A stretch of DNA of 39,269 nucleotides from a virus. Its lineage: Duplodnaviria > Caudoviricetes. A model generated the notes under the pieces. That model saw only the letters and a program-made list of their open reading frames with translations, searched no databases and was not told where the DNA came from. The stretch is from IMG/VR virus record IMGVR_UViG_3300010362_000050, positions 1 to 39,269 of that record; one strand, 5' to 3'. Each line of letters begins with the position of its first letter. Within the stretch, counting starts at the first letter, position 1. The position numbers were made by a program, and so were the translations under genes. Below are positions 7,971 to 38,613 of this stretch, piece by piece.

Positions 7971-8376
7971 GGCCTACGAATTCTTCGTCGACGAGTGCAT
8001 TTCTCCCAAGTACGTCGGTCAGGTGTTTCGCGACGCCGGCTTTCCCGTCCATGTCCAAGGTCCCGCTACGTTCGGCACGGGCAGCCAGGATGTGGACTGG
8101 CTGCCGAAGGTGGGCGCGCGACGGTGGGTCCTGATTACGAAGGACAAGAATATTCGGAAGCGGGCCATTGAGGTCCGCGCGCTCGTGGAGTCTGGTGTGC
8201 GGGCGTTCGTCTTCACGGGCGGCGGCATGCGAGGCGAAGATCAGGGGATCGTCTTTCGCACGGCCTTGCCAGCCATCCTTCGTATGCTGGCTCGGATACC
8301 GCCGCCGTTCATCGCCAGAGTCACCTCCAGTGGCGACGTCGAACGCATTGACGCGGATCGATATCTGAAGACCTGA
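7903..8376 (+). CDS. PIN-like toxin (VapC45/Rv2019-like)
   Basis: FFVDECI, DVDWL, WVLITKDKNIR acidic PIN motifs; GAGGA RBS before ATG 7903; overlaps the antitoxin. Confidence 0.88.
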   Translation: MGARHRRSKKRSAANSRSTSPPEAYEFFVDECISPKYVGQVFRDAGFPVHVQGPATFGTGSQDVDWLPKVGARRWVLITKDKNIRKRAIEVRALVESGVRAFVFTGGGMRGEDQGIVFRTALPAILRMLARIPPPFIARVTSSGDVERIDADRYLKT

Positions 8377-15356: not shown

Positions 15357-15631
15357 GATCCGCTCACCGCCTTTTCGGTCGTCGGGTCTGGTGCTGGCGT
15401 CGGTTGACGGAAGTGCAGATCGTAATCGTCGAGCACTTCGAAGATGCACCGGAGTCCCTCTTGGCTGGCGACCATCGCGTCGCTGTGCCGCAGATCGCCC
15501 AGGCGATCGTCGTGCACCCGGTAGTACTCGTGGATGCCGTCCTTCATGCAGTCGCGAATCCGCTGATAGCACTCGGCGCGAGGATCGTCACTCGCCCGGC
15601 GGCGGAGCACCGCGCGCGGCACAGGAGTCAT
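15353..15631 (-). CDS. Hypothetical protein (92 aa)
   Basis: ATGA/GTGA overlaps on both sides; GAGG RBS. Confidence 0.65.
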   Translation of the reverse strand: MTPVPRAVLRRRASDDPRAECYQRIRDCMKDGIHEYYRVHDDRLGDLRHSDAMVASQEGLRCIFEVLDDYDLHFRQPTPAPDPTTEKAVSGS

Positions 15632-16556: not shown

Positions 16557-19500
16557 CTACTTCGCCACTCCATAGAGGCGGATCGTGCCCGTCTGATTCA
16601 CCGTGGTGAAGCCGTCGGACGTCGCCCAGAACCGCAGGGCGTTCATCGCGGACGCGTTGGTCCAGACGATCGAGATGCGCGCCTGGACGAACGGGGTTCC
16701 GGTCACTGACGAGCGGTACGTCGCGAGCACATCGAGCACCTTGTAGTGGACCGTGTCGAGCGGATCGTGAATCTTGAGCGAGCCTGTAAGGCCGAGCAGC
16801 GTCGTGCTTGAGATCTGCAGGGTGTTGATGCTCGCGCTGTTCGTGCCGCCGATCCCGGACCCATTCGCGCTCGTGCTGTACTCCGACATCTGCTGGAAGT
16901 TTGTTGTCGCCGCGGTGTCCCATGACGTCCCGCCGTTCGTCGACGGCTGGACGTTGATCGTCGCGTTCGCCGCCGGCACCAGGTTGTCCAGTTCAATCAG
17001 GTACTGGTCGAAGTCCGACTGGAAACTCGCGCCGGTCTGCCCGGTGGCATTCCGCGTCGTCAGGTCGATGGCCGCGGCCCCGCTGACCGTTCGCGTCTCC
17101 AGGAGGACGAGCCCGGCCGGCGGGCCGGTCGACCCGCCGCCGCCAGTCATTCCGCCCTCGCCGCCGTAGTCGACGAAGATGTTGTCACCGACGGCCGGCG
17201 CATCCACGAGCGTGAACGTCGTCGACGTCGTCTCGGTGTAGTGCGTGGTCTTCTTGAGCCGAAGCCCGTTCAGGAAGACGGCGAGCTGCGTGTAGGCCGC
17301 GGCCGTCGTGAAGACCTTGTTCGAGCCGTCGATCGCGCCGGTCGGGATCTCGTTCCGCGTCGGGGCGACGCCGCTGCCGGCGGGTCCGGTCGGCCCGGCT
17401 GGTCCGGTGGTATTCGCCGCGAGCAGCTGCCCGACCTGAAAGGTCGTCGCATTGACGCCGCCGAGCACATCGTGCGTCGCCGTGTCGTCGATGAAGACCT
17501 TTACCTCGAGGTAATCGCCGACCGCGAGATCGAGCTGCGTCGCGCACTGGATGATCGGCTGAATGACGTTCGAGCCCTTCGTCTCTGCGACCTTCGTCCC
17601 GTTCTTGGCGATGCGGACGACCTGGGCCGTCGACGTTCCGGAGAACGTCGCCATCGAGACTTGCGCAGTTACGACGTACTTGCCGGCCTTTCCAGTCGGG
17701 ATCGTCAGCCGGGTCGGATGCCCGGAGACATCGAACAGCGCGTCAGTGTCGTAGACAGTCGTGCTGAACGCGATCGCCGTCTCGGTGTTCGGCGTGACCG
17801 CCTGATTCGATGCGCGGTAGATCGACGCCCCGACGACCGAGCTGCCGGACGGCGCGCTCGAGACCTTGAGTCCGGCGGCGCTCTTCGAGAGCGACGACCC
17901 ATCGAGCTTGATGTTCAGGATGTCGGGATCGGCCTGGAGCCCATCGCCGGCGACGACGTCGAGCGACCCGCTGGCGAGCACGAGTCCGTTGCCGGCCGTG
18001 AACGACGTCCCGCCGCCGGCCGCGACCGCCGCGTCGACGTAGCCCTTCGTGGCCGCGTCATCGGCGGCGACCGGGTCGTCGACGTCGGTCAGCTTGTGGC
18101 CGCCCATCGACTCGTCCGCCCCGAACGGCACCGTGCCGTCCGAGCGGATGTCACCGCTCCCGGTCCCGCTGTGCGCATCGACGTACGCCTTCGTGGCGGC
18201 ATCCTGAGCGGTCGTGGGATCGGCGACGTTCGTCAGCTTGTGCCCGCCCATGGATTCATCCGCGGCGAAGGGCACGGAGCCGTCGCTCTGGATGTCCCCG
18301 GATCCAGGCGGGATCGCCGCAATCGCGGCGTCGACGTAGGCCTCGGTCGCGATGGGCTCCGTGGTGTCGAGCGCCAAGCCGACATCGGCGAGCGTGGCGA
18401 TCGTGGGCGCGCCAGAGACGGTGACGGCCAAGGGTGCCGCTGCCGTGACCGTCAGCGCATGCGGTGTGACGCCGCCCGTGCCCCCACCGCCGCCGCTCCC
18501 CCCGCCTCCCCCGCTGAAGCTGCCGCCACCGCTCGGCGCCTGGCCGTCGCCTTTCAAGAGCGCGCGATTGAGGAGATCGTCCAGCGTGAACTGCGTGCTC
18601 GAGGCCGTCACGGCCATGAGCTTCTTCAGTCTCGGGCCGAACTGGAGCTTGCTTTCACGGACAGATTGGATCCGAAGACTCATGTCGACGGCGGGTTGGG
18701 GCAGGTCGAAGGTGGCGATCCGGCCTTCGCGCGTCTTCGGATCGGTGGTCGTGTACTCCACGCTCGTCTGCGGCATGGAGAAGAGCGTGAGTTCGGCCCG
18801 CAGCCGATCGCGGAGCGCGGCCGTCCGCAGATCGGTTTCCTCGATCACCGTGTCGCGAATCCCGTCCCCGCCGAGCCGACCCGCGAGAAACACCTGGGCG
18901 GGTACGTCATCTTCCTGCACCCAGATGTTCACCGGGGACCCGATCGGCATGGCCGCGCGAATCGATCGATCGCCCGTCGACGGAATGCCGACGAGCAGCA
19001 GATGCATGATCGGCGGCAGCGCGCCTGGCGGGGTCTCTCCGCTCGGGAGCAGATCGGCGCCCGATCCGCGTTCGGAGTATTTGCTCGGGGGAAGCGTCGG
19101 CGTGGTGTCGTCGTAGCTCGTCGTCGTGTTGTCGGGGAGCGTCGTCAGCAGCGTGTAGACGTCTGGGTTGTTGGCCTGGGCGCGGTAGATCTTGCGTGCG
19201 ACCGGCTGAAACGAGACGGCATCACCGAGCGTGATGGCGGACCGCAGCGGGGATCGGAGACTGATCGTGCTGGTCGTCGACCCACCCCCTGCGATCGTGG
19301 CGGCGCTCGCGACCGTGTACGTGCCGGCCGAGCCGATCGCGATGACGTTCCCTGCCCCGATCGTGGCGTCGGCGCCGGACTTGGTGACCGAGAGGCTCGA
19401 CATGCCTTCCGCCACATCCGCAGCGACCTGGATATCGCCGCTGGGCACGTCCGCCGCATCGACGTTCGGCATCAGCGGGATATTCGTCAGCGTGATCGTC

Positions 19501-21911
19501 GCGCCGGTGGTGTTCTCGGGCGGGATGCGGACCGTCTGACCCTTGGTGTTCACGACGAGTCGATCTTCCTGGTCGAGGTTCTCTTCCGTCAGCGAGGCAT
19601 CGTTGAAGATGTCGATAAAGGTCGTCGGTCCGCCTTCCGGAATCGTGGCGATGCGGTACAAGCGCGTGTACAAGGCGGAATCCGCGCCGGCGCGTTTCGA
19701 CCGATAGATGCGAATGCCCAGCACCCGCGGATCCGCGAACGCCGCCCCCGTCGTCACCAGGCCGGAGATGTGGATGGCACTGCCGCCGGGATTCGGGACG
19801 CTCACGCCAATCAGCGATCGCTGAAAGCGGACCGTCTCACCCGTGGCTGTGTAGTGCACGATGTCGTACGCGTAGTCGCCGAAGTCCATGGCGCCGGCGC
19901 CGAGCTCCGGCGTGAACGTCGGCAGGCTGATGCTCGGCGCAATCTGGACGTCCCCATACGCATTCGTGGCCGCGCCGCTGAGCGCCGACTCGACGCCGAA
20001 CGCGTCGACGAAGGCGACCTTGTAGAAGACGTCATCGCGGATGGGGCCATTCGCGTGGCTGTCGTTCCGAGCGATCATGCCGCTGCCTGCAGGGCCCGCC
20101 GCACGATTCACGGCCTCGCTCTGCCGACGCGTTCCGGTGTAGGAGAAGATCTGGCCCTTGCTGATCGCTTCGCCGCCGCTGCTTTCGAAGGGCGACAGAT
20201 CGCTCACCTCGAGGACCGTGTTCCCCGCACGGCCCGCGACCGTCACGGTCGATCCAGCGCCACGGCCGTACGCCCGATTGCGAATGTCCGAGACGTTCAC
20301 CGTCACCGTGATCGGCGGTGTGAACTGCAGGCTCGCCGTCGTCGGGGTGATCGGATCGGGCGCCGTCGCCGCTTCCGTCGCGAAGTAGTGCAGCGTCTTG
20401 CCGTCGAGATACCAGTGCAACGGCGTCTCGGCCCCTTTGGCCAAGGCGTCGAACGCTTCGGTCATCGTCAGTGAGCCGTCAAGGGTGATCGTGATGGTGG
20501 CGAGATCGGTCTCGACGTCCGCCGTCGAGAAGTCGGCCGGCGCAAAGCGCGCCATGAGATCGAGCACGACGTCGTCCACCGGGGCGTCCGTCCAGGTGCC
20601 AAACGGCCGCCTCGCGTTGAGCAGCCAGGCCCAATCGGTGACCGTGACTTGATGCGCCGATTGTCCGGGTTTGCCGTCGAACGTTTCGGCGACGGTCAAC
20701 GCGACGCCGGCATAGACCTCGTCCGGATCGGTGAGGACGACGGACACCGGCTGCCCTGGCAGCGGGGCGTCAGGCCCCGCCGAGAAGGTCATCTGCCCAG
20801 GCGTTCCGAAAGGGCGATCGATCGCGGGCTCGGGCTGCCGACGGATGCGGCTCGACCAGGGCGAGCCCGGGGAGTCCGGATCATCGGGGTCCGGCGTCAC
20901 GGCGTCGTACGTGAATGGCGCGGACGGAAAGGCACCGACTCTCACATCGACGACGCCGGCTGAATGCGCGGGGCTCACGGCCGTATACGTCGAACTGTCG
21001 ACGAACGTCACGTCGGTCGCCGCGATCCCGTCGAAGGTGACATCGAGCCCGTCGGTGAATCCCGCGCCGTGAATCGTCACGGTCGTCCCACCGGCCATCG
21101 GCCCATGATCGGGATCGAGCCCATCGTCGGGGATCCCGGTCGCGTCGTAGGTGAACCCGCCCTCGAGCGTCCCGAAGCCCGCATCGGGGTTGGTCACCGT
21201 CACCGAAACAGGTCCGGCCAGGTGCGGCGGCGTCTCACACGTGATGGTCGTCGCGCTGGCGACGTCGACGCTGGATGCCGCGACGTTGTCGAAGTTGACG
21301 ATGGCCCCGCTCACGAACCGCAGGCCGGTGATCGTCACCGATGTGCCACCTACGTCAGGTCCGTGCGACGGCGCGACCGACGTGACCTCCGGTGGCAGGA
21401 TCTCGTCATAGTCGACTGTCACCGTGAACCCGCTCACCGTGAAGTCGATGCTCGTCCAATCCTGCGAGACACCGAGAATTGATCGGCTCTCGAGCGTCCA
21501 AGCGACGAGCGAGGAGAACAGGGCGGCACGATTCGTCCCGTCCAGGATCCCGCCCGTACCCGACCCGCCGGCCGAGAAGTGGACGGTGGGACTCGACTCT
21601 GACGCTTCGGCGAACGAACTGCCGTCGCCGACGACCGCGTGCGGATCGCTCGGACCGCTGATCGCGACGTCGGCGTCGAACTCCAGCATAACGTGCGTGA
21701 TCAGGATGAGCGGCGGGACCGTCCCGTCGTCAACGAGGGTCGCCGACGCGCGCTCCTCGATCTGCTCGCCGGTCGTCCGTGGCGTGACGCCGCTGATCGA
21801 CCCATCGAGCGCCGACGGCCAGTCCTCGAACAAGCCGCCGGTCGCCGCGACCGTGCTGTCGGCCGCGCTGAATGAGAAGCTCGACCCGCCGCTGAAGACC
21901 TTCGTCGGCAT
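16557..21911 (-). CDS. Large modular tail-tip/fibre protein (2x IPT/TIG, hub-like region, stalk repeats, C1q-like domain, gp10-like module, head domain)
   Basis: Directly follows tape measure; PxxGPxxGGTxVTIxG IPT motifs; DAATKxYVD repeats; TRLTIP..AGKY...LAVGDYLEV. Confidence 0.85.
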   Translation of the reverse strand: MPTKVFSGGSSFSFSAADSTVAATGGLFEDWPSALDGSISGVTPRTTGEQIEERASATLVDDGTVPPLILITHVMLEFDADVAISGPSDPHAVVGDGSSFAEASESSPTVHFSAGGSGTGGILDGTNRAALFSSLVAWTLESRSILGVSQDWTSIDFTVSGFTVTVDYDEILPPEVTSVAPSHGPDVGGTSVTITGLRFVSGAIVNFDNVAASSVDVASATTITCETPPHLAGPVSVTVTNPDAGFGTLEGGFTYDATGIPDDGLDPDHGPMAGGTTVTIHGAGFTDGLDVTFDGIAATDVTFVDSSTYTAVSPAHSAGVVDVRVGAFPSAPFTYDAVTPDPDDPDSPGSPWSSRIRRQPEPAIDRPFGTPGQMTFSAGPDAPLPGQPVSVVLTDPDEVYAGVALTVAETFDGKPGQSAHQVTVTDWAWLLNARRPFGTWTDAPVDDVVLDLMARFAPADFSTADVETDLATITITLDGSLTMTEAFDALAKGAETPLHWYLDGKTLHYFATEAATAPDPITPTTASLQFTPPITVTVNVSDIRNRAYGRGAGSTVTVAGRAGNTVLEVSDLSPFESSGGEAISKGQIFSYTGTRRQSEAVNRAAGPAGSGMIARNDSHANGPIRDDVFYKVAFVDAFGVESALSGAATNAYGDVQIAPSISLPTFTPELGAGAMDFGDYAYDIVHYTATGETVRFQRSLIGVSVPNPGGSAIHISGLVTTGAAFADPRVLGIRIYRSKRAGADSALYTRLYRIATIPEGGPTTFIDIFNDASLTEENLDQEDRLVVNTKGQTVRIPPENTTGATITLTNIPLMPNVDAADVPSGDIQVAADVAEGMSSLSVTKSGADATIGAGNVIAIGSAGTYTVASAATIAGGGSTTSTISLRSPLRSAITLGDAVSFQPVARKIYRAQANNPDVYTLLTTLPDNTTTSYDDTTPTLPPSKYSERGSGADLLPSGETPPGALPPIMHLLLVGIPSTGDRSIRAAMPIGSPVNIWVQEDDVPAQVFLAGRLGGDGIRDTVIEETDLRTAALRDRLRAELTLFSMPQTSVEYTTTDPKTREGRIATFDLPQPAVDMSLRIQSVRESKLQFGPRLKKLMAVTASSTQFTLDDLLNRALLKGDGQAPSGGGSFSGGGGGSGGGGGTGGVTPHALTVTAAAPLAVTVSGAPTIATLADVGLALDTTEPIATEAYVDAAIAAIPPGSGDIQSDGSVPFAADESMGGHKLTNVADPTTAQDAATKAYVDAHSGTGSGDIRSDGTVPFGADESMGGHKLTDVDDPVAADDAATKGYVDAAVAAGGGTSFTAGNGLVLASGSLDVVAGDGLQADPDILNIKLDGSSLSKSAAGLKVSSAPSGSSVVGASIYRASNQAVTPNTETAIAFSTTVYDTDALFDVSGHPTRLTIPTGKAGKYVVTAQVSMATFSGTSTAQVVRIAKNGTKVAETKGSNVIQPIIQCATQLDLAVGDYLEVKVFIDDTATHDVLGGVNATTFQVGQLLAANTTGPAGPTGPAGSGVAPTRNEIPTGAIDGSNKVFTTAAAYTQLAVFLNGLRLKKTTHYTETTSTTFTLVDAPAVGDNIFVDYGGEGGMTGGGGSTGPPAGLVLLETRTVSGAAAIDLTTRNATGQTGASFQSDFDQYLIELDNLVPAANATINVQPSTNGGTSWDTAATTNFQQMSEYSTSANGSGIGGTNSASINTLQISSTTLLGLTGSLKIHDPLDTVHYKVLDVLATYRSSVTGTPFVQARISIVWTNASAMNALRFWATSDGFTTVNQTGTIRLYGVAK
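18030..18302 (-). repeat. Two 43-aa fibre stalk repeats (144-nt period)
   Basis: SGDIQSDGSVPFAADESMGGHKLTNVADPTTAQDAATKAYVDA (18174-18302) and SGDIRSDGTVPFGADESMGGHKLTDVDDPVAADDAATKGYVDA (18030-18158). Confidence 0.9.
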
Positions 21912-27417: not shown

Positions 27418-27777
27418 TCAGGCCAAGGCCGGATCCCGAAGCCGGCGCAAGATGCTGGTAATGGTAGGCGTCAGCTGCCCGTCTTCGATCTTCGCTGGGC
27501 CCTGTCCCTCGACGTCGTCCCCATGGAAGCGCCACAGTTCGCTCAGCATCAGCAGGATCGCCGACTGCACGCGCGGCGGCACCGTGTTCGGTTGATCGGG
27601 CTCAATCGTCCAGTGTTCCGGCGACGTCGCGGGGATCTTCAGGTAGTCGAGGATGATGTCCTCCGCCTGGGCAAGCTTCAGCGTCAGATCCCGTTCCATC
27701 GGATCGATCGGCGAGGCGCCCAGGATGATCGGAACCCGCAGATGGTCGACGGCCTGCTGCATCGTCACGAGCGCCAT
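27418..27777 (-). CDS. Head-tail connector (HK97 gp6-like)
   Basis: MALVT...HLR, AEDIILDYL, VQSAILL....W, LRDPALA; GGGAGG RBS. Confidence 0.85.
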   Translation of the reverse strand: MALVTMQQAVDHLRVPIILGASPIDPMERDLTLKLAQAEDIILDYLKIPATSPEHWTIEPDQPNTVPPRVQSAILLMLSELWRFHGDDVEGQGPAKIEDGQLTPTITSILRRLRDPALA

Positions 27778-28463
27778 GCCAGCCTCTCGTACATCGAGCA
27801 GTCGCCAATCCACGAGCGCAGCGTGGCGAGCGTCGGATCGGGATGCCACTCCGGACCCGACGGCCGATGCCCGATCCCGAGCCCGGCGCGGCCGGGCAAG
27901 CCCTTGATGCCGACGACCGTTTCCGTGCGCGCGAGGCGCTGCGCCGGCGCCGGCACGAGCTCCCAGAGCTCCGCATCCACGCTGAAGGCGTGTCTCCGCT
28001 GGCAGGCCGCGATGACGCGAGACAGGAGCGGCAACAAGGCCCGCTTCAGTCCCGTCTGGCAGAGCGAGGCCCCGCGATTCTGGAAGACGCGCCAGCACCG
28101 CTGGCGGACGTTGTAGTAGCGCTGCACGTCGTCGCCCGCGATGAGGGCGTCCTCGTCGGCGAGCTGCCCCATCAGCCGTTCGAGGTGCGTCGGCTGGTAG
28201 TGGTCATCGTCCTCGAGGAAGAGAATGACGTCGCCGGTTGCCACCGCCAGCGCGCCTTCGAGGTTGTGCAGGAAGTTCGACGCTCCGGGCGGCCGCGGCG
28301 ATCGCACCACGCGCTGCCCGAGCGTGACGTCAGCCGGCACGATCCCGCCGTCGGCGACGATCCACTCGTCGGGCTGGCGCGTCTGCGCGCGCATGAAGCC
28401 CTCCAGCAGGCCGAACGCCACTGGCCGATCACACGTCGGGGTGATCACGCTCAGGCGCGACAT
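27765..28463 (-). CDS. Glycosyltransferase, GT2/GT-A fold
   Basis: LSVITPT.DRP, WIVADGG, ILFLEDDDHY. Confidence 0.85.
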   Translation of the reverse strand: MSRLSVITPTCDRPVAFGLLEGFMRAQTRQPDEWIVADGGIVPADVTLGQRVVRSPRPPGASNFLHNLEGALAVATGDVILFLEDDDHYQPTHLERLMGQLADEDALIAGDDVQRYYNVRQRCWRVFQNRGASLCQTGLKRALLPLLSRVIAACQRRHAFSVDAELWELVPAPAQRLARTETVVGIKGLPGRAGLGIGHRPSGPEWHPDPTLATLRSWIGDCSMYERLAWRS

Positions 28464-29119
28464 GCCGCCTCCCGCGCGGGCTGATAGAGCGTCCAGCGCG
28501 CGTACGGATTGTCGCGATAGTGGCCGGTCAGATAGCGGACCTTTGTCGCCGTCAGCCAGCGGGCGAAATCGACCGACATCTGATCGCGCCAGTGCCACTT
28601 CCGCACTTCCGCCCACCAGATCCGGTTGAAGTTGGCGATCGGCATCGTGTGCCGTCGCAGGCAGAGGCCGGTCGACGTGATCGCCCGCTGGGTGAAGCCG
28701 AGCGCGGTGTAGGCGGCCACCTGGCGATCGAGCAGGGTCCGGTCGACATAGCCGAGCGTCGCGATCGCCTCGGCTTCCTCCGCGATCGTGCTCCGATGCG
28801 GATGCTGCAGCGCGAGCAGATCCGCGCCGTCCATGAGCGTGACGAGCCCACGCGGGTTGCTCGTGAGCGTGAAGGCCGCATCGTGCCAGAGCGAGAACTC
28901 CGGTGACTCGAGCGCGGGATGATCGGCCAGGATCTTCAGCCGGCGCGACGTCAACCGTGGACCCTCAGCCGGCACGATGCGGATCGTCTCGTACGGCGGC
29001 ACGTGCACCGCACGATCGCTGAAACAGACGTAGCGGACGTCCGGCACGACGATCAGCGGCCGCCGGAGCGGATCGGTATCCCCGAGCACGGCGGTGAAGA
29101 CCGTGAACGGCGCCGTCAT
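28451..29119 (-). CDS. Glycosyltransferase-like protein (DUF616/TOD1-MUCI70-like)
   Basis: VFTAVLGDTD.L, YVCFSD, SLWHDA, HPHR.TI.EE, RDQMS. Confidence 0.75.
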   Translation of the reverse strand: MTAPFTVFTAVLGDTDPLRRPLIVVPDVRYVCFSDRAVHVPPYETIRIVPAEGPRLTSRRLKILADHPALESPEFSLWHDAAFTLTSNPRGLVTLMDGADLLALQHPHRSTIAEEAEAIATLGYVDRTLLDRQVAAYTALGFTQRAITSTGLCLRRHTMPIANFNRIWWAEVRKWHWRDQMSVDFARWLTATKVRYLTGHYRDNPYARWTLYQPAREAACRA

Positions 29120-29721
29120 CGGCGTCGCTCCATGACGAGCAAGCCATGGCTGTCGACGTAGCGCGCGGCAATCTGCCACGAGGGATCCCGGATGCAGGCC
29201 TCGTCGATCGCGGGCCGGATGCCGAGATACGCGCGCGGCACCGATGGGCCGCCGGGCGTGTACGCCCAGGCCGGCCGACCGGTCTCACCGTCGGCGGCGA
29301 TCTCACCGAAGGTCCCGACATCGTGGAAGACGAGAAAGTGCTTCACGCGATCGGCATGCCGGCGGAGCTCCGCATCGCACTGCGCGTACGAATGGAGAGA
29401 GTCGACGAACAGCAGATCGCACGGAGGGATCTCCGCGGTCCGGCTGTCTTCGATGCGGTAATCCCAGTGCGCGCCAGCGGCCGCGGCGAGCCGATCCGCC
29501 TCCGAGGTGCGCACGAGATCGTACGATCGTACGTAGGGCGCCCCGAGCAGCAGCGCGCTCGACGAGGCGCCACGTTTCACGCCGAATTCCACACAGACGT
29601 CACACGACGCGGCCAGCATGCGCAGCCGCGGCAGATGCGCCGTGATCGCGGTCTGCTGGCGCAGATGCCCCTCGTAGATGGCCGCCACGGCCTGAGCGTT
29701 CCAGGTATCGACGGCCGTCAC
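29116..29721 (-). CDS. Class I SAM-dependent methyltransferase (Methyltransf_24-like)
   Basis: VEFGVKRGASS, DLLFVDSLH.Y, LVFHDV, GL.V. Confidence 0.85.
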   Translation of the reverse strand: MTAVDTWNAQAVAAIYEGHLRQQTAITAHLPRLRMLAASCDVCVEFGVKRGASSSALLLGAPYVRSYDLVRTSEADRLAAAAGAHWDYRIEDSRTAEIPPCDLLFVDSLHSYAQCDAELRRHADRVKHFLVFHDVGTFGEIAADGETGRPAWAYTPGGPSVPRAYLGIRPAIDEACIRDPSWQIAARYVDSHGLLVMERRR

Positions 29722-30443
29722 GGGAGCGCCCCCTCGAGCGGCTGGCGCGGCACGCATGTGAGCGCGCTCCAGCGCGACGCATTTACCAGACGCACCCCGA
29801 GCTGCTCGAGCGGCTCGATGCACGTGGCGAAGTGTTCGCGGAAGAGCGCGTAGGGCGATCCGCCGCGCAGCGGCGAAGGATGCGCGCCGAACCAGTGCGA
29901 TCGGGCTTCCCCATCCGGCGCGTCCATGTCGTACCCGAGCAGGACGATCGTTTTCGCGCCGAGATGCACGGCGAGGTTCACCGCGGCGTACCCGGAGTTA
30001 CGACCGTCGCGCAGTCCCGTTGGCGCGAGCTCGATTCCGTCGTGTCCGGTGTTCTCGAGCACCGTCACGCCCCAGCAGGCCGCATGCTTCTCGAGGCTGA
30101 CCTTCAGCCCCACGAACTCGGGTACACCGCGATGGTGCGCCCACCACGCGGAATCGCTAGCCATGAGCGCGTCGGCCCACGGGGCCAGGCGGTACGCGTC
30201 ATTGACGGCGATGACCGTGGCGCGCTCGCGACAGTACGCGACGTCGGCGCGAGAGAGTGAGGGCCCACAGCCAAGACAGACGACCGTGCCGCCATCGCAC
30301 AGGCGCGGCGCGCGAGGCGGCTCCCGTCTATAGACGACCTGTCCGCCCTCCGCCATCGGTACCAGCCGCGCGCCACCCATTCGGAGAATGTCCGGGCGTG
30401 TCGCGCGCTCCGCGGCAGTCAGCTCGCGCACGTCACTCGCCAC
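29718..30443 (-). CDS. MptE/Maf (DUF115)-like, sialyltransferase-fold protein
   Basis: VCLGCGPSL, IAVNDA, NSGYAAVNLAVHLGAKTIVLLGYD, HWFG. Confidence 0.75.
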   Translation of the reverse strand: MASDVRELTAAERATRPDILRMGGARLVPMAEGGQVVYRREPPRAPRLCDGGTVVCLGCGPSLSRADVAYCRERATVIAVNDAYRLAPWADALMASDSAWWAHHRGVPEFVGLKVSLEKHAACWGVTVLENTGHDGIELAPTGLRDGRNSGYAAVNLAVHLGAKTIVLLGYDMDAPDGEARSHWFGAHPSPLRGGSPYALFREHFATCIEPLEQLGVRLVNASRWSALTCVPRQPLEGALP

Positions 30444-30666: not shown

Positions 30667-31512
30667 TCAGTAGGCATTGCGTCCCGGTGTCCCGGGGTCT
30701 CCTTTCGCGCCCTGCGGCCCCACGTCGCCCCGCGGCCCTTCTTTCCCGTCGCGCCCGCGCTTCACCGCCAGCGACCAGAACTTGGCCGCATGCGGGGTGT
30801 CATCCGGGGTCACGCTCGTGGCCGTCTTCGCGATCCACGACGACCCCCCGCGCGTGACGGCATCCCCGCGGGCGTACTCGCGGCCGGCTTCATGCGTGCC
30901 GCGGTTGATGACGATGGGCAGCACGATCGCCCGTTCCTTGACGAGCTCCCCGCGCACGAAGCGGAACGTCACGGTCCGCTCGCCGTCGTAGGCGACGTCG
31001 AAGTCCTCGAGCGAGAACCCGTCGAGGCCGTTCGTCCCGTCGCGGCCGGGGGACCCATCGAGGCCCTTCGCGCCGTCCTGTCCGTCGCGGCCCGGGACGC
31101 CTGGCTGACCGTCACGGCCGTCTCGGCCAGCCTCCCCGGGCTGCCCCGCCGGCCCTCGGTCGCCGGCTGTCCCGGTCTCGCCCTGGAGGCCCTCCTGGCC
31201 GGGTTCTCCGGGCTCGCCGCGCGCGCCAGGCGCGCCCTCAGGACCTTGGGGCCCCACCGGACCGACGTCGCCAGCCAGGCCCCGCGGGCCCTCGGCGCCG
31301 GGCTCACCCGCCGGCCCAGCCGGTCCCGTCGGTCCGATCTCTCCGCGATCGCCCTGAGGCCCGGCCACAGGCGGGCGCGCTTCCAGTTCCGCGATCTTCC
31401 GGATCAGCGGCGTCATGGCCGCCGTGACCGCGGCCTCTACGGACGTCGTCACGAAGCCCTTGAGCGCCGGCACCGTCCCATCAACGAACGCGCGGAGCTC
31501 CTCGGTCGTCAT
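30667..31512 (-). CDS. Collagen-like head-associated protein
   Basis: About 38 uninterrupted G-X-Y triplets, then YARGDAVTRGGSSWIA...WSLAVKRGRDG module; directly after portal. Confidence 0.85.
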   Translation of the reverse strand: MTTEELRAFVDGTVPALKGFVTTSVEAAVTAAMTPLIRKIAELEARPPVAGPQGDRGEIGPTGPAGPAGEPGAEGPRGLAGDVGPVGPQGPEGAPGARGEPGEPGQEGLQGETGTAGDRGPAGQPGEAGRDGRDGQPGVPGRDGQDGAKGLDGSPGRDGTNGLDGFSLEDFDVAYDGERTVTFRFVRGELVKERAIVLPIVINRGTHEAGREYARGDAVTRGGSSWIAKTATSVTPDDTPHAAKFWSLAVKRGRDGKEGPRGDVGPQGAKGDPGTPGRNAY

Positions 31513-32912
31513 GCGGCGAGTGCCTTGCGCACCAGCGAGTCGGTCACGTCGGAGACCGCCTCGAGCGGAATCTCACGTTCGGCCGACGGTGGTGCGGCCG
31601 GTGGCGGCTGTGGCGGCATCGGCGCCGGCGGCGTCGGCGGACGCGTCGGCAGCTCCCGCTCCGCCAGCAGCTCAAGCGGCCAGTTCTGCTCCTGGAGGTA
31701 CGGCGTCTCGCCACCGGCGACCGGTGGGTAATTGATCCGCTTCCGGGCGTCGTTCGGGGAAAAGAGAGCGCCTTGAACCCCCTTGGCGAGCGTGTCGATC
31801 ATCGTCGCCGTGTCCATGCGCAGCAGATCGTCGAGGTCGACGTTCACGCGGTACTTGCTCGGCAGCTCGAGCCCTTCTGTGAGCGCGCACTTCAGCGACT
31901 CGGTGGGCTCCTGGAGCGCCTGTGCGTAGTACCCCTGTTCGAGCGCCTCGATGTTGTTGTATGCGGGTGGCGGCTCGGCGCCGACCTTGTACGCGGGGAT
32001 GTGGAACGGCACCGGCACTTGCGCGGCCGTCCACTTCAACTGTTCGATGAGCTGCGCGTCGATCGCCTTCATGGTGAAGGGTTCGAATTTCAGCCCGTCG
32101 CCGCCGACGGCGACCTTGCCCGCGTTTTCGCCAGAGAAGTTTTCGTTGAAGTACTTCGCGAGCCGGTCCGCGGTCTCCTTGGAAATCGCGCCGGGCGCCG
32201 AGAGGAAACCGCTGAGGATCGCCCCATTGGCGAAGAACGCTGTGGAGTTCTTCTGAATCTTCAGCCCCTGGATCGCCGTCAGGCCGGCGGCTGCGACCGG
32301 CCCGACGCCGACCAAGGGGTGATACAGCGGATACATGATGTCGTGGATGATCTCGCTCGCCGGCACGACAAGGGCGTCGTCCACGAGCGTCGAAAGCGGA
32401 TCCCGTTGGAGCTGGTAGTACACCGAGCCGTCTTCGGCCACAAGCGGCGTCACGCGCGAGGGGTCGAGGATGTAGAGCGCGCTGATCGTGTTGCGATCGT
32501 TGCGCTCCTTCAGCACGTAGGTGTTGCCGGTCCGGAGCTTGGAGATGATCCAGTACATCGCGAACTTGATTCGCGATTGGTAGCGGTTCGGCTTGCGCAG
32601 TAGTGGGCTGAACGCCGGCGCCTCAGTCTCCACCCAGATGCCGTTGCTGTCGCGCTCCTCGAGGAACCATCGCATCTTGGCGATGTCACCGCCGATGAGC
32701 GTCACGCAGGCGAAGAGCGTCGCTTGCGCCAGCACGTTGAGATCGTCGGTGGCGACGATGTTCTGTTGCCACGCGCCCGGGAAGCTCTCGCGGACCAGCG
32801 GCCAGATCCGCCACCAGCCCCGATTCCCCGTGGTATCGAGCGGCATCAGGTTCGCGGCCGTCGCGTCGATCTTCTTCGACCGGACGATGTCGAACCCGAA
32901 AAGCCGCATCAC
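31509..32912 (-). CDS. Portal protein (HK97 family)
   Basis: LLRKPN.YQ, GNTY, SEIIH, FFANGA..SGFL, NAGKVAV, SPNDAR. Confidence 0.93.
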   Translation of the reverse strand: MMRLFGFDIVRSKKIDATAANLMPLDTTGNRGWWRIWPLVRESFPGAWQQNIVATDDLNVLAQATLFACVTLIGGDIAKMRWFLEERDSNGIWVETEAPAFSPLLRKPNRYQSRIKFAMYWIISKLRTGNTYVLKERNDRNTISALYILDPSRVTPLVAEDGSVYYQLQRDPLSTLVDDALVVPASEIIHDIMYPLYHPLVGVGPVAAAGLTAIQGLKIQKNSTAFFANGAILSGFLSAPGAISKETADRLAKYFNENFSGENAGKVAVGGDGLKFEPFTMKAIDAQLIEQLKWTAAQVPVPFHIPAYKVGAEPPPAYNNIEALEQGYYAQALQEPTESLKCALTEGLELPSKYRVNVDLDDLLRMDTATMIDTLAKGVQGALFSPNDARKRINYPPVAGGETPYLQEQNWPLELLAERELPTRPPTPPAPMPPQPPPAAPPSAEREIPLEAVSDVTDSLVRKALAA

Positions 32913-33208
32913 TCCTCCGGTCGCAGATCGGTCCGCTGATACCGACCCTCCGCACGGCGCCGGCCTGGTGCGGGGGACGGCAGATCAGCGGGGGGGGGCT
33001 CAGCAGGAACGGGCTCAGAGGTGTCGTGTCCAGATTCTGCCGCGATCGTGGCGCTGCCAGCGCCGGGTACGGCTTTCTTCTGATAGCGCCACGCCGCGGC
33101 CGTGGCCGCATCGCACGTGAATTCCTCCCCGCTGCGGTACAGCCGGCCGCGGTAGGTGACGTCCTTCAGCGCGCGCATCCGAACCTGTGACATCGGCGGT
33201 GGGCTCAC
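32909..33208 (-). CDS. Small head-region protein (start uncertain: 33208, 33193 or 33178)
   Basis: MRALKDVTYRGRLYRSGEEF...; Pro/Ser/Thr-rich tail; RYQRTDLRPE end. Confidence 0.7.
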   Translation of the reverse strand: MSPPPMSQVRMRALKDVTYRGRLYRSGEEFTCDAATAAAWRYQKKAVPGAGSATIAAESGHDTSEPVPAEPPPADLPSPAPGRRRAEGRYQRTDLRPEE

Positions 33209-33258
33209 GGAGGAGTGGGCTGCGCGACGCTCAACCTCCTCCGTGTTGAGCGCCGCGC
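33206..33258 (-). promoter_or_regulatory. Structured RNA element after the capsid stop (hairpin whose loop is complementary to downstream sequence)
   Basis: 14-bp stem 33258-33245/33235-33222; loop ACGGAGGAG exactly complementary to CUCCUCCGU at 33215-33207. Confidence 0.6.
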
Positions 33259-33268
33259 GCGTCAGGGA

Positions 33269-36200
33269 TTACGCCGCCCAGGCGACGTTGTCGAGCCACG
33301 CCACCGCTTCCGGCCGGCGACGCGCCCAGTTTACGAACCGCTCCGCGCGCAGACCGAGCAGGTTGGCCTGCCAGAGCGAAACCATCGTCGTCGCCACCGG
33401 CGCCGCCGGCGATCCGGCTGCTCCAGAGTTCGTCGGGTTGTCGAGCATCTGGAGCGACGCCTCGCGCGACGCGTCGATCACGACCTGGCCGTCGTCGGCG
33501 AGATAGATGTCCGAGGCGTTGGCGAGGATGACGATGTTGCGGACCGGTGAGCCGCCCAGCGAGGCGTACTGCGAGGCGACGACGGGGATTCCGAGCAGGG
33601 TTCCGCCCTTCATCGTGAGGCCGGCGAATTCCGGCTGGCCGAACGCATTCACCATGAGCGACAGCGCCAGAGCGGTCGTGCTCGGCATGATGAAGACGGC
33701 GTTGTCGGGCGGGTTGTCGTTCTCGACGAACTGGCCGATGAGCGCCGCGAGGGCGACGCGGACCGCAGCGGCGTCGGTCCCGCTGTGCGCCACCGGCGTA
33801 ATGCCGTTGGTGATCGACGCTGGCGAGACCTTGGTGACCGCGGCTTTCGCCGGATCGATGAAGTCCTTGTCCATGCGCTCGATGATGGCCGCGGCCAGCG
33901 CGTTCCGCACGAGCGTCTCGGCCGACGGCGAGGAGAACCGGACCAGTTCATCACTGAGCACGGCGATGTTGGCGACCTTGGCGAATCCGAGCTCAGTCGG
34001 CGTGAAGTCGAACTTGGTGAGCGGCTTCGGCGCGCCTTCTCCGACCCAGTAGCCCTGCCCGCCGCTCGTCTGGCCGATGACGCGAATGTTGAAGGGGACT
34101 TTTTGCAGGCCATCGATGCGGCCGATGATCGTGGCCGGTCGTAGGAACTGGATGAAGTCTCCGGTGAAGTTCTGATAGTCGACGAGACTCCCCGCCCACG
34201 TCGGATCGGTCGTCGTTCCAGCCGCGATGGCCGCCTTGAGGACCGTCTCGATCCGCGGCATGTCCGGGAAGCGCGTCCGGGCGATCTCGAGCGCCTGCGG
34301 CGCGAACCCTTTCGCCGAGAGCAGACACATCGCATAGCGCGCGAATTCGATCCCCGGCTCCAGCGGCTTGCTGACGGTGATCGTGTGATGCGCACCGCGT
34401 GACACGGACGCTTCGTTGGCCGTTGTGCCGAGCGCCGGTCGCGCGTTCGCCTTGTTGATCGTCTCGGCCTGCGTGAGCCGCACGAGATGCTCGTCGAGCG
34501 ACTTGACCTCCCGATCGAGGCTGTCGTACTCCTCGCTCTGCGCCGGGTCGAGCGTCGCGTCACCTGCGGCCTCCATGATGGCGGTCATCCGCGCGGCCTT
34601 GGCCTGACGACTCGCTTCGAACGATTTGATGCGCTCCTGAATGTTGAACATGGGACTTCTCGATCGGTCTGCGCCCGTGGGGCCGGGCTTGACGACGACG
34701 ACCCAGCGGCCAGTGCCTGAGGCGGCGGGCCGCCCGCGGTCGAAGGACTTGATGGTGGCAATGGTGGCGTCTGCGTTCGCGGGAATCGTGACCAGCGAGA
34801 GTTCGAGCAGTTCGGTTTCCAGAAACCGGAACCCGCCGGTCTCACGAATGACCTCGACGGCCTCGTTGAGCGGCCTGAAGCCGATCGAGACGGCGCGGAC
34901 CAACTTTGCAATGACCGAGTCGATCGCCTCGTTGACCCGCTCGCGCAAATTCGTGGATCGAAACGGCGTCGGGTCTGGAATGACGGCGCTAAACGGCAGG
35001 CCCTCGGCGGTCGCCCTCGTGAACGTGACCTGACCGATGGGTTTCTGGGTGTCGTGGTAGAGCAACAGCGACACCGGGTTTTCGAATTGAATGCCGCTTG
35101 TCACGATCTCGTCGCCGACCCGATCTACTTCGGGCGTGGTCGCGATCCCGCTGAATGTTAGGCCGCCGTTCCGGTTCGTGCTGTCGATTTCCTTGATTTT
35201 CAGGACGCTATACGCGCGGTACTCGGTTCTCGCTGGAATCGTCCGTCGCACCATCTTCACCTGAAGATTCTCGGCCATGCGGTAGCGCGAGCCGTGCGTC
35301 TGGACCGCGGTGATCAGTGCGCGCTGCTCGGCCAGCTTGGCGAGGGCCTGCGTCAGCGCCGCCGAGACGGTGAGCCCTTCCTGCTCCTGGATGATCGTCG
35401 CGAACCGGGCGAGCTCGCGGACGTGCGCGCCGGAATAGCCGTCGGTGGCGTCGACCGCGGTCTTCCGATCGGTGGCGGGCAACGACGGCAGCCAGCGCTG
35501 CAGCATCTTCCCGCGCGCGACGGGGTCCGGGAGATCGAACTTCAGGACGTCATGAAAGCGCCCGGGCCGATCGATCAAGGCCTTCGGCAGCAGCTCCGGA
35601 TAGTTCGTGGTCAGGACCGTCACCACGCCCGTGCTCTGCGCAATGCCGTCCATCTCGGTCTTCAGCAGATCGACCGAGTAGCCATCCAGCCAGTTGTCGA
35701 CGTCCTCGATGAAGAGAATCGACGGCGCGTACTCCTTCGCCAGCGAGAATGCGTAGGCGAGCCCGCCGAAGGCGCCGGCGCGGTGGAAGTCGCGCGCTGA
35801 CACCCAGATGAACGTGCCCTTGGCGGCGTTCATCATCAGCCGGCCGGACAGCGTCTTGCCGGTGCCCGGCGGCCCGACGAGCAGCATGCCGCGGTTCTCG
35901 AGCGTCGCGCCCTTCTCGTTGATGAGCGTCACGACACGGCGAATCGCCTTCTCGTTGGCCGGCTCGAGGAAGAGATCGTCCCAGCTCTCTTCGCTCCGCG
36001 TCAGGAACTGGCCGGAGAGTGCGAAGGCCTCGCCCTGGAGCAGCTTCAGGCCGGCCGCGCGCGTCAGGACCTCGTCGAGCAGCTGGTGCGCGACGCCGCG
36101 CTCGTCGCGCTTCGCGTACGTCGTGACGTCGAGCCCGTACCACGCCGGTTGCACGCGCAGCGCGAGCTTCGTGCCCTTCCACTGGAAGAACCGGATCCCA

Positions 36201-36571
36201 TCGACGAGGAAATCCTGACGGAGTCGGGAGTTCAGCTGGATCAGCTCGTAGACCGGCGGCTCTTCCTTGCCGTCCCACGTCAGGTTGCGGATGTCGTCGA
36301 TGATCGCTTCGCGCAGCGATTCGTCCAGCGACTTGAGAAAGCCGCCGATTCGCACCGAGGGGATCACCTCGGTCTCCTCCTGCAGGAGCTTGACCTCGCA
36401 GTCGAGGTACCGGCTGACCAGCGCCTGCTCCGCGGTCCGCGGCGGAAACTGCGCCCGCGCGACGTCGAAGGTCTTCGTCAGCGCGCAGTTCCACCGCACG
36501 GGATCCGTCGGCGGAGCGGCGGCGGAGCCGATCCGGACGACAGGCAGCGGACGTACAGCGGCCTGGGCCAT
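33269..36571 (-). CDS. AAA+ ATPase / HK97-type prohead protease / major capsid protein fusion (1100 aa)
   Basis: Walker A GPPGTGKT (aa 233), Walker B ILFIEDVD, TTN, RPGRF; protease from about aa 452 (FSGIATT, LLYHD, VSIGF, ELSLVTIPAN); capsid from M641 (YWVGEGAPKP, SDELVRFSSPS). Confidence 0.88.
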   Translation of the reverse strand: MAQAAVRPLPVVRIGSAAAPPTDPVRWNCALTKTFDVARAQFPPRTAEQALVSRYLDCEVKLLQEETEVIPSVRIGGFLKSLDESLREAIIDDIRNLTWDGKEEPPVYELIQLNSRLRQDFLVDGIRFFQWKGTKLALRVQPAWYGLDVTTYAKRDERGVAHQLLDEVLTRAAGLKLLQGEAFALSGQFLTRSEESWDDLFLEPANEKAIRRVVTLINEKGATLENRGMLLVGPPGTGKTLSGRLMMNAAKGTFIWVSARDFHRAGAFGGLAYAFSLAKEYAPSILFIEDVDNWLDGYSVDLLKTEMDGIAQSTGVVTVLTTNYPELLPKALIDRPGRFHDVLKFDLPDPVARGKMLQRWLPSLPATDRKTAVDATDGYSGAHVRELARFATIIQEQEGLTVSAALTQALAKLAEQRALITAVQTHGSRYRMAENLQVKMVRRTIPARTEYRAYSVLKIKEIDSTNRNGGLTFSGIATTPEVDRVGDEIVTSGIQFENPVSLLLYHDTQKPIGQVTFTRATAEGLPFSAVIPDPTPFRSTNLRERVNEAIDSVIAKLVRAVSIGFRPLNEAVEVIRETGGFRFLETELLELSLVTIPANADATIATIKSFDRGRPAASGTGRWVVVVKPGPTGADRSRSPMFNIQERIKSFEASRQAKAARMTAIMEAAGDATLDPAQSEEYDSLDREVKSLDEHLVRLTQAETINKANARPALGTTANEASVSRGAHHTITVSKPLEPGIEFARYAMCLLSAKGFAPQALEIARTRFPDMPRIETVLKAAIAAGTTTDPTWAGSLVDYQNFTGDFIQFLRPATIIGRIDGLQKVPFNIRVIGQTSGGQGYWVGEGAPKPLTKFDFTPTELGFAKVANIAVLSDELVRFSSPSAETLVRNALAAAIIERMDKDFIDPAKAAVTKVSPASITNGITPVAHSGTDAAAVRVALAALIGQFVENDNPPDNAVFIMPSTTALALSLMVNAFGQPEFAGLTMKGGTLLGIPVVASQYASLGGSPVRNIVILANASDIYLADDGQVVIDASREASLQMLDNPTNSGAAGSPAAPVATTMVSLWQANLLGLRAERFVNWARRRPEAVAWLDNVAWAA

Positions 36572-36577
36572 GGCAGC

Positions 36578-36712
36578 CTAGTCGCTCTTCGGCGGCGGCG
36601 CGGTCGTCCCGGGCTGTGACGTCGGCGGCTCAGAGGCCGGCGGCGTCGAACTGGGCGTATTGGGATTGGGATTGCTCGTCGGCGGCGCCGGCGGCTTCGC
36701 GGTGTCGGTCAT
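36578..36712 (-). CDS. Putative 44-aa Pro/Ser/Thr-rich peptide
   Basis: MTDTAKPPAPPTSNPNPNTPSSTPPASEPPTSQPGTTAPPPKSD; fills the gap before the capsid fusion. Confidence 0.45.
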   Translation of the reverse strand: MTDTAKPPAPPTSNPNPNTPSSTPPASEPPTSQPGTTAPPPKSD

Positions 36713-36733
36713 GCCCCACAGCATAGGGGCATG
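36710..36733 (-). promoter_or_regulatory. Inverted repeat enclosing a -10-like box (candidate head-gene promoter/operator)
   Basis: CATGCCCC-8-GGGGCATG; minus-strand loop contains TATGCT, 7 nt before ATG 36712. Confidence 0.4.
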
Positions 36734-36739
36734 CCGGAA

Positions 36740-36985
36740 TTACGTAGTACGAAAGCCGTGGACGTCGCTGAGCTCTTTGACCACTTCGTCAGCGGCCGCG
36801 ACGCAGACATCCCGGACGAATTGCGTCAGGCTCTGACCGCTCAGTTCCGCCGCCTGGATGACGCGCGACCGTTCGTCAGGTGACAACCGCACGGTGACCG
36901 TGAGCGATGGCGCTTCGGCGCGCGCGGGCCGGCCGCGATGGGGACCGAAGATCTGCATCGAGGGAGCGTCGGTGAAGTCGCTCAT
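36740..36985 (-). CDS. Ribbon-helix-helix regulator (DUF1778-like) with RGRP motif
   Basis: RGRP, VTVRLSPDER..VIQAAELSGQSLTQFVRD; ATGA overlap with terL. Confidence 0.75.
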   Translation of the reverse strand: MSDFTDAPSMQIFGPHRGRPARAEAPSLTVTVRLSPDERSRVIQAAELSGQSLTQFVRDVCVAAADEVVKELSDVHGFRTT

Positions 36986-38613
36986 GATCGTCCTCCGAGT
37001 ATCACCATTTGAAACTGCTTCTCTCGCAGCGCGCCGGCAGCGATCGCGTCGGTCCGGGCTTCCCAACTCAGCACGGCCGCCATGGTGAGATCGATCTTGT
37101 GCGGGGAATCCGGCCGCTCTTTGCGAATCACCCAGAGTCGTTTGCCGTCCTCATCCCGCTGCAGCAGCTCGTGCTTCCGCGCGTTGCCGATGTGCCCGGT
37201 CAGCCGCGCATCGCCGGAATGATGGATCGTCCCTTCCTTCATCGCGGTGTCGAAGTTCTCGAGCGCCGTGGCCATCGGCTTGTTTCGATTCGTCCACCAC
37301 TCGATGACACGCTTCTCGCTGTCGGGACGATCGGCATCGAGCTCACCCGCCCACTTCGCGATCCATTCCTGCCAGTACGGCGGATCGGCGTAGAGGCGCC
37401 AGACGTGGTAGCGCTCGAAGCATTCGTGGATCCGCGCATCGACCTCCAGCGGTGGGACTTGCCAATTCGGCGGCGGCGGGTACGGACATTCCCACGCATC
37501 GATCACCCACTGATAGCCGTCCTCGACGTCCGTCGCGACGAGCGCGGAGCCATCATGAAACTTCGAGCCATCGAAACCGAGTGTGATGAGCCGACCCTCG
37601 GCGACGGGCTGATGGCGCGCGAGGCTCTTCCAGCGCACGACTGAGAACGCCTGCGTCGAGCTCCGCACGAGGCGATTGCACCAGACACGCTCCCAGTAGG
37701 CGCGGTCCGTCGTCGGATCGAGCCAGAGATTGACGATGGCATCGATGTCGCGCCAGCTGGCGGAGGGCCCGGACGCTTCGATCACCGCGGCGCGCGCGCC
37801 CTCGACCGTGGTCAGATCGTGGGCGTCGCCCGCCTGCCGATGAAAGAAAAACAGCGCCGCATCCTGGACGCGGCCCTCGTCGACCATCTGCGCGTACTCC
37901 ATCGTCGCTTCGGCGACCGAGCCCGCGCCGGGTTCCGGGGCCGTCGTGATCTCGAGCATCCAGGGATCGGCGATCTTCCGCTTCGCGAGATTCGCGAGCA
38001 TCGTCTGGTGGGCCTGCTTCAACCGGGCTGACGTCCACCAATGCGTTTCATCACCAACGGCAAACGTCGTCCGCGCGCCATCGCGTGCGCTCGGACTCGA
38101 CGACAACGACACGGCTTTCCCGTCGCCTTTCTTGCGCACGATGCGCTCGAGCCCTATGTCGAAATCGTCCTTCAGTGGCCCCTTCTCCAGCACGATCCGG
38201 AGCGCCTCGTACGCGAGCTCGCTCGATTGCGCCTCGGTATACGCGACCATCGGGATGTAAGGATCGGTGACCGGCCCGCCGATCGGCTCTCCGCTGTCCG
38301 TGAAGCCCGTGCAGCGCACCGGGGCGTCGGGATGCAGCTCGCACGCGGCGATCCAGGCCGAGAGCTCCGTTTTCCCGACCCCCTTCGTCAGCGAGAGCCC
38401 GGCGCGCTTGAAGCGGCGCCTGCCCTGGAGCCGATGGCCGCGCGGGAAGACTTCGTACATTCGGTAGATGAGGGCGACCTTCTCCTCATCGAGGCGGACG
38501 GGCAACCCGCGGAGATCGCCGGGGCCGTAGACCATGTTCTGTTCGATGAAGTCGCAGACCTGGGGACCCAAGGTCGGATACCACGCGGTGTCGTGCGGGA
38601 CCGTGAGGATCAT
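36982..38613 (-). CDS. terL: Terminase large subunit
   Basis: Walker A TKGVGKTE, Walker B AVGDETH, ITTA, LGFDGS, DPPYW, KIDL.MA. Confidence 0.95.
   Translation of the reverse strand: MILTVPHDTAWYPTLGPQVCDFIEQNMVYGPGDLRGLPVRLDEEKVALIYRMYEVFPRGHRLQGRRRFKRAGLSLTKGVGKTELSAWIAACELHPDAPVRCTGFTDSGEPIGGPVTDPYIPMVAYTEAQSSELAYEALRIVLEKGPLKDDFDIGLERIVRKKGDGKAVSLSSSPSARDGARTTFAVGDETHWWTSARLKQAHQTMLANLAKRKIADPWMLEITTAPEPGAGSVAEATMEYAQMVDEGRVQDAALFFFHRQAGDAHDLTTVEGARAAVIEASGPSASWRDIDAIVNLWLDPTTDRAYWERVWCNRLVRSSTQAFSVVRWKSLARHQPVAEGRLITLGFDGSKFHDGSALVATDVEDGYQWVIDAWECPYPPPPNWQVPPLEVDARIHECFERYHVWRLYADPPYWQEWIAKWAGELDADRPDSEKRVIEWWTNRNKPMATALENFDTAMKEGTIHHSGDARLTGHIGNARKHELLQRDEDGKRLWVIRKERPDSPHKIDLTMAAVLSWEARTDAIAAGALREKQFQMVILGGRS

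Follow-up and report, generated by a model that had tools for sequence, protein, structure and literature searches.

A single open reading frame on the minus strand of IMG/VR virus record IMGVR_UViG_3300010362_000050 (positions 33269..36571 of the 39,269-nucleotide stretch that was analyzed, referred to here as the window) encodes a protein of 1100 residues that combines an N-domain, an AAA+ ATPase, a prohead protease, a delta (scaffold) domain, and a major capsid protein. Comparison with its homologs shows that the conserved link is between the ATPase and the protease, not between the ATPase and the capsid protein. This stable partnership had been missed in the initial annotation of the window, which was made from the sequence alone. 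The ATPase module (N-domain plus AAA+ domain) is optional and mobile, and most relatives of this capsid protein lack it. All parts of the protein are of known kinds; no description of their combination was found in the literature searched.

The 1100 codons contain no internal stop. Pfam searches detect the AAA domain at residues 229 to 346 (E value 7e-19), Peptidase_S78 at residues 497 to 607 (5e-9), and Phage_capsid at residues 828 to 1090 (4e-18), and PHROG 617, a family of protease-capsid fusions, matches residues 448 to 613 and 641 to 1098. In Logan contigs from run X1, both junctions are spanned without a difference (34946-35878 for ATPase-protease and 33000-34925 for protease-capsid), and these contigs, used instead of reads, show no stop or chimeric join. 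X1 is the only run found with this DNA (no RNA data set was listed as containing it) and may be the source sample, so the independent evidence for the fusion comes from homologs. The same domain order is found in 24 other protein clusters at 90% identity (22, one of them truncated in the capsid part, plus 2 more), in which the AAA domain is not a separate gene. The three-part fusion proposed in the initial annotation, an AAA+ ATPase joined to a protease and a capsid protein in one stop-free frame, is thus confirmed as real.

Across the family, the ATPase is linked to S78 proteases in three domain orders, with linkers of 24 to 309 residues. Among the best 120 long homologs, from a search that covered proteins of 605 to 1925 residues only, 93 have a protease-ATPase-tail architecture, 23 are triple fusions (including the query and one truncated protein), and 4 show no protease. 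A profile search with the N-domain, covering proteins of any length, gave 309 clusters at 50% identity. The best 150 of these include 136 with the protease (129 in the protease-N-AAA order, 3 protease-N, 3 ATPase-protease, and 1 triple fusion), 13 with no recognized partner, and 1 fragment. At 88 loci, likewise collected at any protein length, the module is fused in 80 cases (77 protease-first, of which 66 are distinct, and 3 triple), cut by the contig end in 5, and unfused in 3; in these three, the protease gene lies just upstream, lies just downstream, or the gene is split inside the N-domain. The protease-first homologs mostly have a separate capsid gene; at 50 of the 53 other loci, the next large gene codes for a major head protein. 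At two loci, L152 (4196-6508) and L106 (3786-7418), the ATPase module is separate from but adjoins the protease gene; in L152, it is located between the portal gene and a protease gene with a Mu I-like scaffold part.

A Gly-basic-hydrophobic motif following a helix-like stretch ends 47 of 88 protease-first proteins and, by analogy with HK97 gp4, might represent a capsid-binding tail. Very long protease-ATPase proteins (1369 to 2035 residues), with tails of 650 to 1180 residues that have no Pfam matches, are encoded at L009 (6771-12878), L134 (7206-11543), and L103 (7134-11243). A search for stand-alone forms among proteins of 223 to 713 residues gave about 30 family members, mostly from short contigs and often with a start within the module or an end in the tail of the protease-first forms; a few of them may be true stand-alone ATPase modules. 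No cellular stand-alone source of the module was found in protein searches, and in 49 relatives and a further 25, Pfam searches detected no known effector domain next to the ATPase. A metagenome scan with generic motifs recovered 2 family loci among 80, the rest being used as cellular AAA controls.

The N-domain (residues 25 to 190; 36002..36499, minus strand, as for all parts of the fused gene) begins at a conserved RWN motif, with W27 present in 107 and N28 in 106 of 111 sequences. It has no family in PHROG, Pfam, or NCBIfam and had been listed as an unknown domain; Foldseek and VIA comparisons of the model of the whole module show an alpha/beta fold like that of the YjoB and Bcs1 N-domains. 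A search of the ESM Atlas with this domain gave a best score of 0.82, which is a lead only. The AAA+ domain (residues 191 to 431; 35279..36001; Pfam ID PF00004) includes a lid and a long C-terminal helix. Its Walker A motif (residues 233 to 240; 35852..35875), which is invariant in the homolog alignment, its sensor 1, and its second region of homology with two Arg residues are all intact, and its Walker B motif (residues 285 to 290; 35702..35719) has the ED order that is named as an exception common to YjoB and Bcs1 (PMC9565160). All 222 modules compared have K239, T240, E289, and D290, and 219 of the 222 have N323, R335, and R338 (the other 3 are gapped); such near-complete invariance indicates that the ATPase is under strong selection. 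The module is therefore as intact as first described, and the motifs quoted in that description, together with methionines 432, 440, and 641, are all present in the frame.

Residues 25 to 431 are modeled confidently (predicted local distance difference test [pLDDT] score, 84.7; predicted template modeling [pTM] score, 0.80). The best match of the module in the PDB is YjoB (Foldseek E value, 4e-18), followed by Bcs1. In VIA, residues 1 to 391 of the model align with YjoB (PDB 7W42) over 345 residues, both domains together (Z score, 18.5; root mean square deviation, 8.5), and 311 residues align with Bcs1 (PDB 6UKP; Z score, 15.0; root mean square deviation, 16.6). Other AAA proteins align over about 220 to 250 residues, essentially the ATPase core. 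This core is of the classical clade, similar to p97, PAN, and FtsH; the FtsH, PAN, and CDC48 family models score 58 to 71 bits on it, versus cutoffs of 500 to 1008. Relative to VAT, the pore-loop-1 region is shortened by three residues, and position 264, a Tyr in 65 of 111 sequences, is an Arg here. Residues 1 to 42 are unstructured in the model and contain no hydrophobic helix, indicating that a Bcs1-type N-terminal membrane anchor is absent. Sequence motifs and predicted structure together point to an ATPase of the YjoB/Bcs1 type, a type that holds or moves folded proteins.

YjoB of Bacillus subtilis (PDB 7W42 and 7W46) shares with the module an N-domain followed by a single AAA domain, the ED Walker B motif, and an extended N-terminal arm, and is described as a hexamer whose chamber has room for about 21 kDa and as a substrate-specific holdase that suppresses aggregation and releases its substrate upon hydrolysis (PMC9565160). 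Unlike YjoB, which is a stand-alone cellular stress protein, the module is phage encoded and fused to a head protease. A YjoB ortholog, as found in Bacillales (more than 50% identity, stand-alone cellular gene), is ruled out by the 18% identity and by the fusion to head genes. Mitochondrial Bcs1 and the phage BCS1 orthologs (PDB 6UKP and 9GSN) have the same two-domain fold and ED Walker B motif; Bcs1 proper is ruled out by the lack of an N-terminal membrane helix in the model. Jumbo-phage BCS1 orthologs have been proposed to translocate folded head proteins, and the passages on these genes mention no fusion to a protease or capsid protein (PMC7824862).

The module is found in none of the 80 closest protease-capsid loci (49 fused, 22 split, and 9 cut; 63 of them with more than 1400 bases upstream). 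Among 50,697 phage genomes, no record covers more than 51% of the module and no cultured phage has it, while the protease-capsid part is covered by 116 records, that of PAJU2 included. Residues 441 to 1100 align with proteins of PAJU2, Rhizobium phage RHph_X2_26, and Salmonella phage FSL SP-016 at 97 to 98% query cover and 45 to 47% identity. The gene thus resembles the S78 protease-capsid fusion family (PHROG 617), including the terminase, protease-capsid, portal gene order, and differs from the cultured members of that family by its 430-residue ATPase extension. Of 11 loci from GTDB, 6 belong to the family, all of them in metagenome-assembled genomes. On a capsid tree built with FastTree from 86 rows, the ATPase label changes 5 times, with at least 4 changes forced by starred branches.

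Where present, the ATPase is better conserved than the attached protease, with median identities of 75 versus 48% in the triple fusions and 50 versus 31% in the protease-first forms; the two co-vary weakly (Spearman coefficients of 0.18 to 0.24, from pairs that are not independent). In the tree of the ATPase, the remaining triple fusions make up a single clade within the protease-first forms, and the ATPase of the window lies outside this clade, grouping with protease-first relatives. A single origin of the ATPase-first triple fusion is not rejected when P0238, a long branch, is left out (approximately unbiased test, P = 0.063; 23 versus 44 rows) and is rejected when it is included (P = 0.007; 25 versus 31 rows). 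Two origins are likely but not firm on these trees, and the direction depends on the root. ATPase-less relatives carry various small repeated domains in the same N-terminal slot ahead of the protease, some of which also occur in 16 of 133 protease-first ATPase proteins. Several such domains, mostly unnamed but one of them DUF6582, precede the protease in proteins P0240 to P0258, and P0250 has a ClpP-type protease instead of S78.

Downstream of the ATPase, a flexible linker (residues 432 to 447; 35231..35278), with pLDDT scores below 50 at residues 422 to 447, carries a conserved K439 that is the predicted release site. It leads into the S78 (HK97 gp4-type) prohead protease (residues 448 to 612; 34736..35230), which scores 36.9 bits against Pfam family PF04586 (cutoff, 21) and 40 bits against TIGR01543, below the cutoff of 59 for that model. 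Residues H506, S562, and E590, which we take to be catalytic, are conserved in 22 of 22 sequences; the His column of protease-first proteins was misaligned and therefore set aside. M641 (34649..34651), also conserved in 22 of 22, is the predicted internal capsid start; split relatives start their capsid gene there. The helical delta domain (residues 641 to 779; 34235..34651), with helices at residues 644 to 709 in the model, ends at K779-A780, the predicted maturation cut. It is followed by the mature HK97-fold major capsid protein (residues 780 to 1100; 33269..34234), which is matched by PF05065, by TIGR01554 above its cutoff, and, in Foldseek, by the Bxb1 and HK97 capsids. The full-length model consists of separate domains joined by low-confidence linkers at residues 422 to 447 and 597 to 642 (pTM score, 0.38), and its Foldseek matches include both HK97-fold capsids and YjoB/Bcs1.

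If residues 1 to 779 were present on all 415 subunits, they would occupy about 43,000 nm3, versus a lumen of 29,000 to 51,000 nm3 (assuming 415 subunits, 1.21 nm3 per kDa, and a lumen radius of 19 to 23 nm). Full-length chains would therefore have to be in the minority or undergo trimming beforehand. Of 46 distinct fused genes, 43 have a Met at the protease-capsid junction and 3 do not. At this Met, 36 of the 43 have a ribosome-binding site at least as strong as -4 kcal/mol, versus 121 of 718 other internal Mets, these counts coming from related genes that are not independent. All such strong sites are in the ATPase-less fused genes (36 of 39; L175 to L251), which suggests a nested protease/capsid arrangement in the common family and a way for protease-capsid fusions to set their stoichiometry. 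Shorter forms starting at internal Mets had been proposed before; the proposal stands for M641, with the strength of its site in ATPase-less relatives and its weakness here, and lacks support for M432 and M440, where the sites are -1.7 and -3.4 kcal/mol and M440 is found in only 2 of 22 sequences.

Lysines at the domain borders are conserved in the 22 sequences (K439 in 20, K460 in 21, K608 in 21, and K779 in all 22, followed by A780 in 21). The next residue is mostly Ala, Ser, or Thr, a pattern that presumably resembles the HK97 delta cut site. Lysine followed by Ala or Ser occurs 2.7 to 3.4 times per 100 residues in the delta domain, 1.8 to 2.0 times in these proteases, and 0.4 to 0.6 times in the mature capsid protein. 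The ATPase module, with 1.0 to 1.1, is near the 0.8 of the cellular AAA controls, suggesting that it might be cut free whole rather than shredded. The idea of a module as rich in cut sites as the delta domain finds no support in the same values.

Several known systems resemble parts of this arrangement. The nested protease and scaffold genes of lambda (C/Nu3), herpes simplex virus 1, and HFTV1 (gp17/17.5) yield two products from one frame, a long one with the protease in small amounts and a short one in abundance; the predicted short form here is the capsid protein itself, and those systems as described include no ATPase (bioRxiv 10.64898/2026.09.13.751334). The single-gene protease-scaffold-capsid protein gp5 of MD8 has a ClpP-like protease and, in its published description, no ATPase (PMC8508860). 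As in polyvalent and MuF-fused head cargo, where variable domains on a head protein are released by proteolysis, a passenger is attached to a head protein; unlike in those, as presented in PMC5512222, the vehicle here is a prohead protease, and the passenger a conserved, predicted ring ATPase. No description of an ATPase-prohead protease fusion was found in a search of main texts, mostly of freely accessible papers; such architectures could be listed in the supplements to PMC5512222 and PMC7824862.

We tentatively favor, at slightly less than an even chance, the possibility that the module is an optional holdase chaperone, gated by ATP, which the protease brings to where heads are assembled. 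This reading builds on the observed fusion, the fold match, the intact ATPase and protease motifs, the near-constant S78 linkage, and the optionality of the module; the ring, its clients, the internal start, and the cuts are predicted. Most capsid subunits would be made from M641, or trimmed before assembly, with few chains at full length. Six or seven full-length chains might form a ring via their N-domains, tied to the growing capsomers by their delta-capsid ends (in protease-first relatives, by the C-terminal helix). The ring would bind folded or nearly folded head proteins and, in the manner of YjoB and its clients, let go of them when ATP is hydrolyzed. The protease would then cut after lysines in the linkers, freeing an intact ring, while the delta domain and the protease would be digested. 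The earlier suggestion of an ATPase tethered to the head and released by self-cleavage is supported: the tether is the protease, and the conserved lysines make release plausible.

A number of observations weigh against the chaperone reading. The chaperone activity, ATP hydrolysis, ring, and client are predictions, and identity to YjoB is only 18%. This head is built without the module in cultured relatives, PAJU2 among them, so any help that it gives must be conditional. Unrelated small passengers in the same slot fit cargo equally well, and the spread of the module over proteases whose median identity is 31%, with which it co-varies weakly, counts against a tailored interface. The ribosome-binding sites at the junction Met are weak in all 4 ATPase-bearing genes with DNA (-3.0 to -3.7 kcal/mol); that of M641 here (-3.0 kcal/mol) ranks 7th among 18 internal Mets, although 4 of 12 presumed starts in the window are as weak (three of 19 start coordinates proved not to be start codons and were left out). 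Moreover, K439 and K460 are followed here by M and E, respectively, which is atypical. The broader proposition, that a widespread group of uncultured phages assembles an ATP-driven ring of the Bcs1/YjoB type within the procapsid, where it is brought by the protease and gates proteolysis or moves folded proteins as the head matures, is less likely than not.

The main rival to the chaperone reading is that the ATPase is packaged cargo, loaded by the protease, cut free, and expelled together with the DNA, its target being a host protein in counter-defense or takeover, like T4 Alt or MuF-fused effectors. We regard this as a serious though rather unlikely alternative. The mobility of the optional module, the interchangeable and partly shared small domains of the N-terminal slot, and the lack of enrichment in predicted cut sites would all be expected of cargo. 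However, a 45-kDa ring-former would need to be unfolded to pass the portal, no MuF or portal fusion was found at the 88 loci or in the best 150 representatives (13 of them without a recognized partner), and the module is far more conserved than the protease, unlike fast-evolving effectors. Head-packaged effectors are an established theme (PMC5512222), which favors cargo, as does the suggestion by Iyer et al. that phage BCS1 handles folded proteins packaged into heads (PMC7824862); the absence of the term "AAA" from the main text of the former paper speaks against it. An unlikely alternative is that the ring gates its own protease, holding the folded 18-kDa domain in its chamber until ATP hydrolysis releases it and so delaying self-cleavage until the prohead is closed. 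Such gating best explains the near-exclusive S78 linkage in either order and agrees with the size of the YjoB chamber and with the movement of a folded domain by Bcs1 (PMC9565160), but most relatives time the same protease without the module, the co-variation of the two is weak, and the linker varies more than tenfold in length.

An ATP-dependent protease in the ClpXP, FtsH, or Lon sense, with the ATPase unfolding delta domains and threading them into the protease, seems improbable. Although the classical-clade core and the presence of both activities on one chain suggest such a machine, the closest folds are YjoB and Bcs1, not threading unfoldases, and the shortened pore-loop-1 region of this protein lacks an aromatic residue at position 264. 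S78 proteases are not known to be barrel proteases. The three domain orders, the low-confidence linkers, and the dispensability of the module argue against such a machine. The same evidence (the YjoB/Bcs1 type, the variable order, and the absence of the module from the 80 close loci) speaks against the unfoldase/protease for head assembly considered in the initial annotation. An assembly chimera, or an overlooked stop that would separate an ATPase gene from a protease-capsid gene, could be suspected from the single metagenomic contig, the single run with this DNA, and the grouping of this ATPase with protease-first relatives rather than with other triple fusions. It is largely refuted by the 24 clusters that share the order, the contigs that span both junctions, the conserved linker that runs on in frame, and the failure to find a cellular stand-alone source.

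Heads of the HK97 type are regarded as maturing without ATP up to the point at which the terminase comes into play. That about 300 clusters link a strictly conserved, predicted ring ATPase to the maturation protease suggests an unstudied chaperone or cargo step, and a ring inside the procapsid, if real, would mean that the assembly of HK97-type heads uses energy in a step other than DNA packaging. The gene is a handy test case, as it has protease, scaffold, and capsid in one frame, could be expressed alone, and has close ATPase-less relatives as natural controls.

The fused gene is flanked by genes for the terminase large subunit upstream (36982..38613, minus strand; phrog_9, E value 2e-68) and the portal protein downstream (31509..32912, minus strand; PF04860, E value 1e-68). 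Between the terminase and fused genes are a small TacA1/NikA-like DNA-binding gene (36740-37066) and a 44-codon Pro-rich frame (36579-36713), both on the minus strand. The DNA is from a soil metagenome, and the record is 78% complete (CheckV); with an integrase gene present (5042-6064, plus strand), it probably belongs to a temperate tailed phage. Also on the plus strand, a DUF433/helix-turn-helix gene (7185-7970) adjoins a PIN-domain gene (7852-8376), likely as a toxin-antitoxin pair. On the minus strand, positions 27765-30443, between a collagen-repeat gene and the head connectors, encode two glycosyltransferase-like proteins (GT2 and MUCI70-like), a methyltransferase, and an MptE-like protein, resembling the Corndog cluster proposed to modify capsids (PMC4351075). 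The same strand carries a transglycosylase SLT gene split by an intein with HINT and LAGLIDADG domains (13596-15572) and a gene for a 1784-residue tail protein that contains TIG repeats and weakly matches a baseplate hub (16557-21911).

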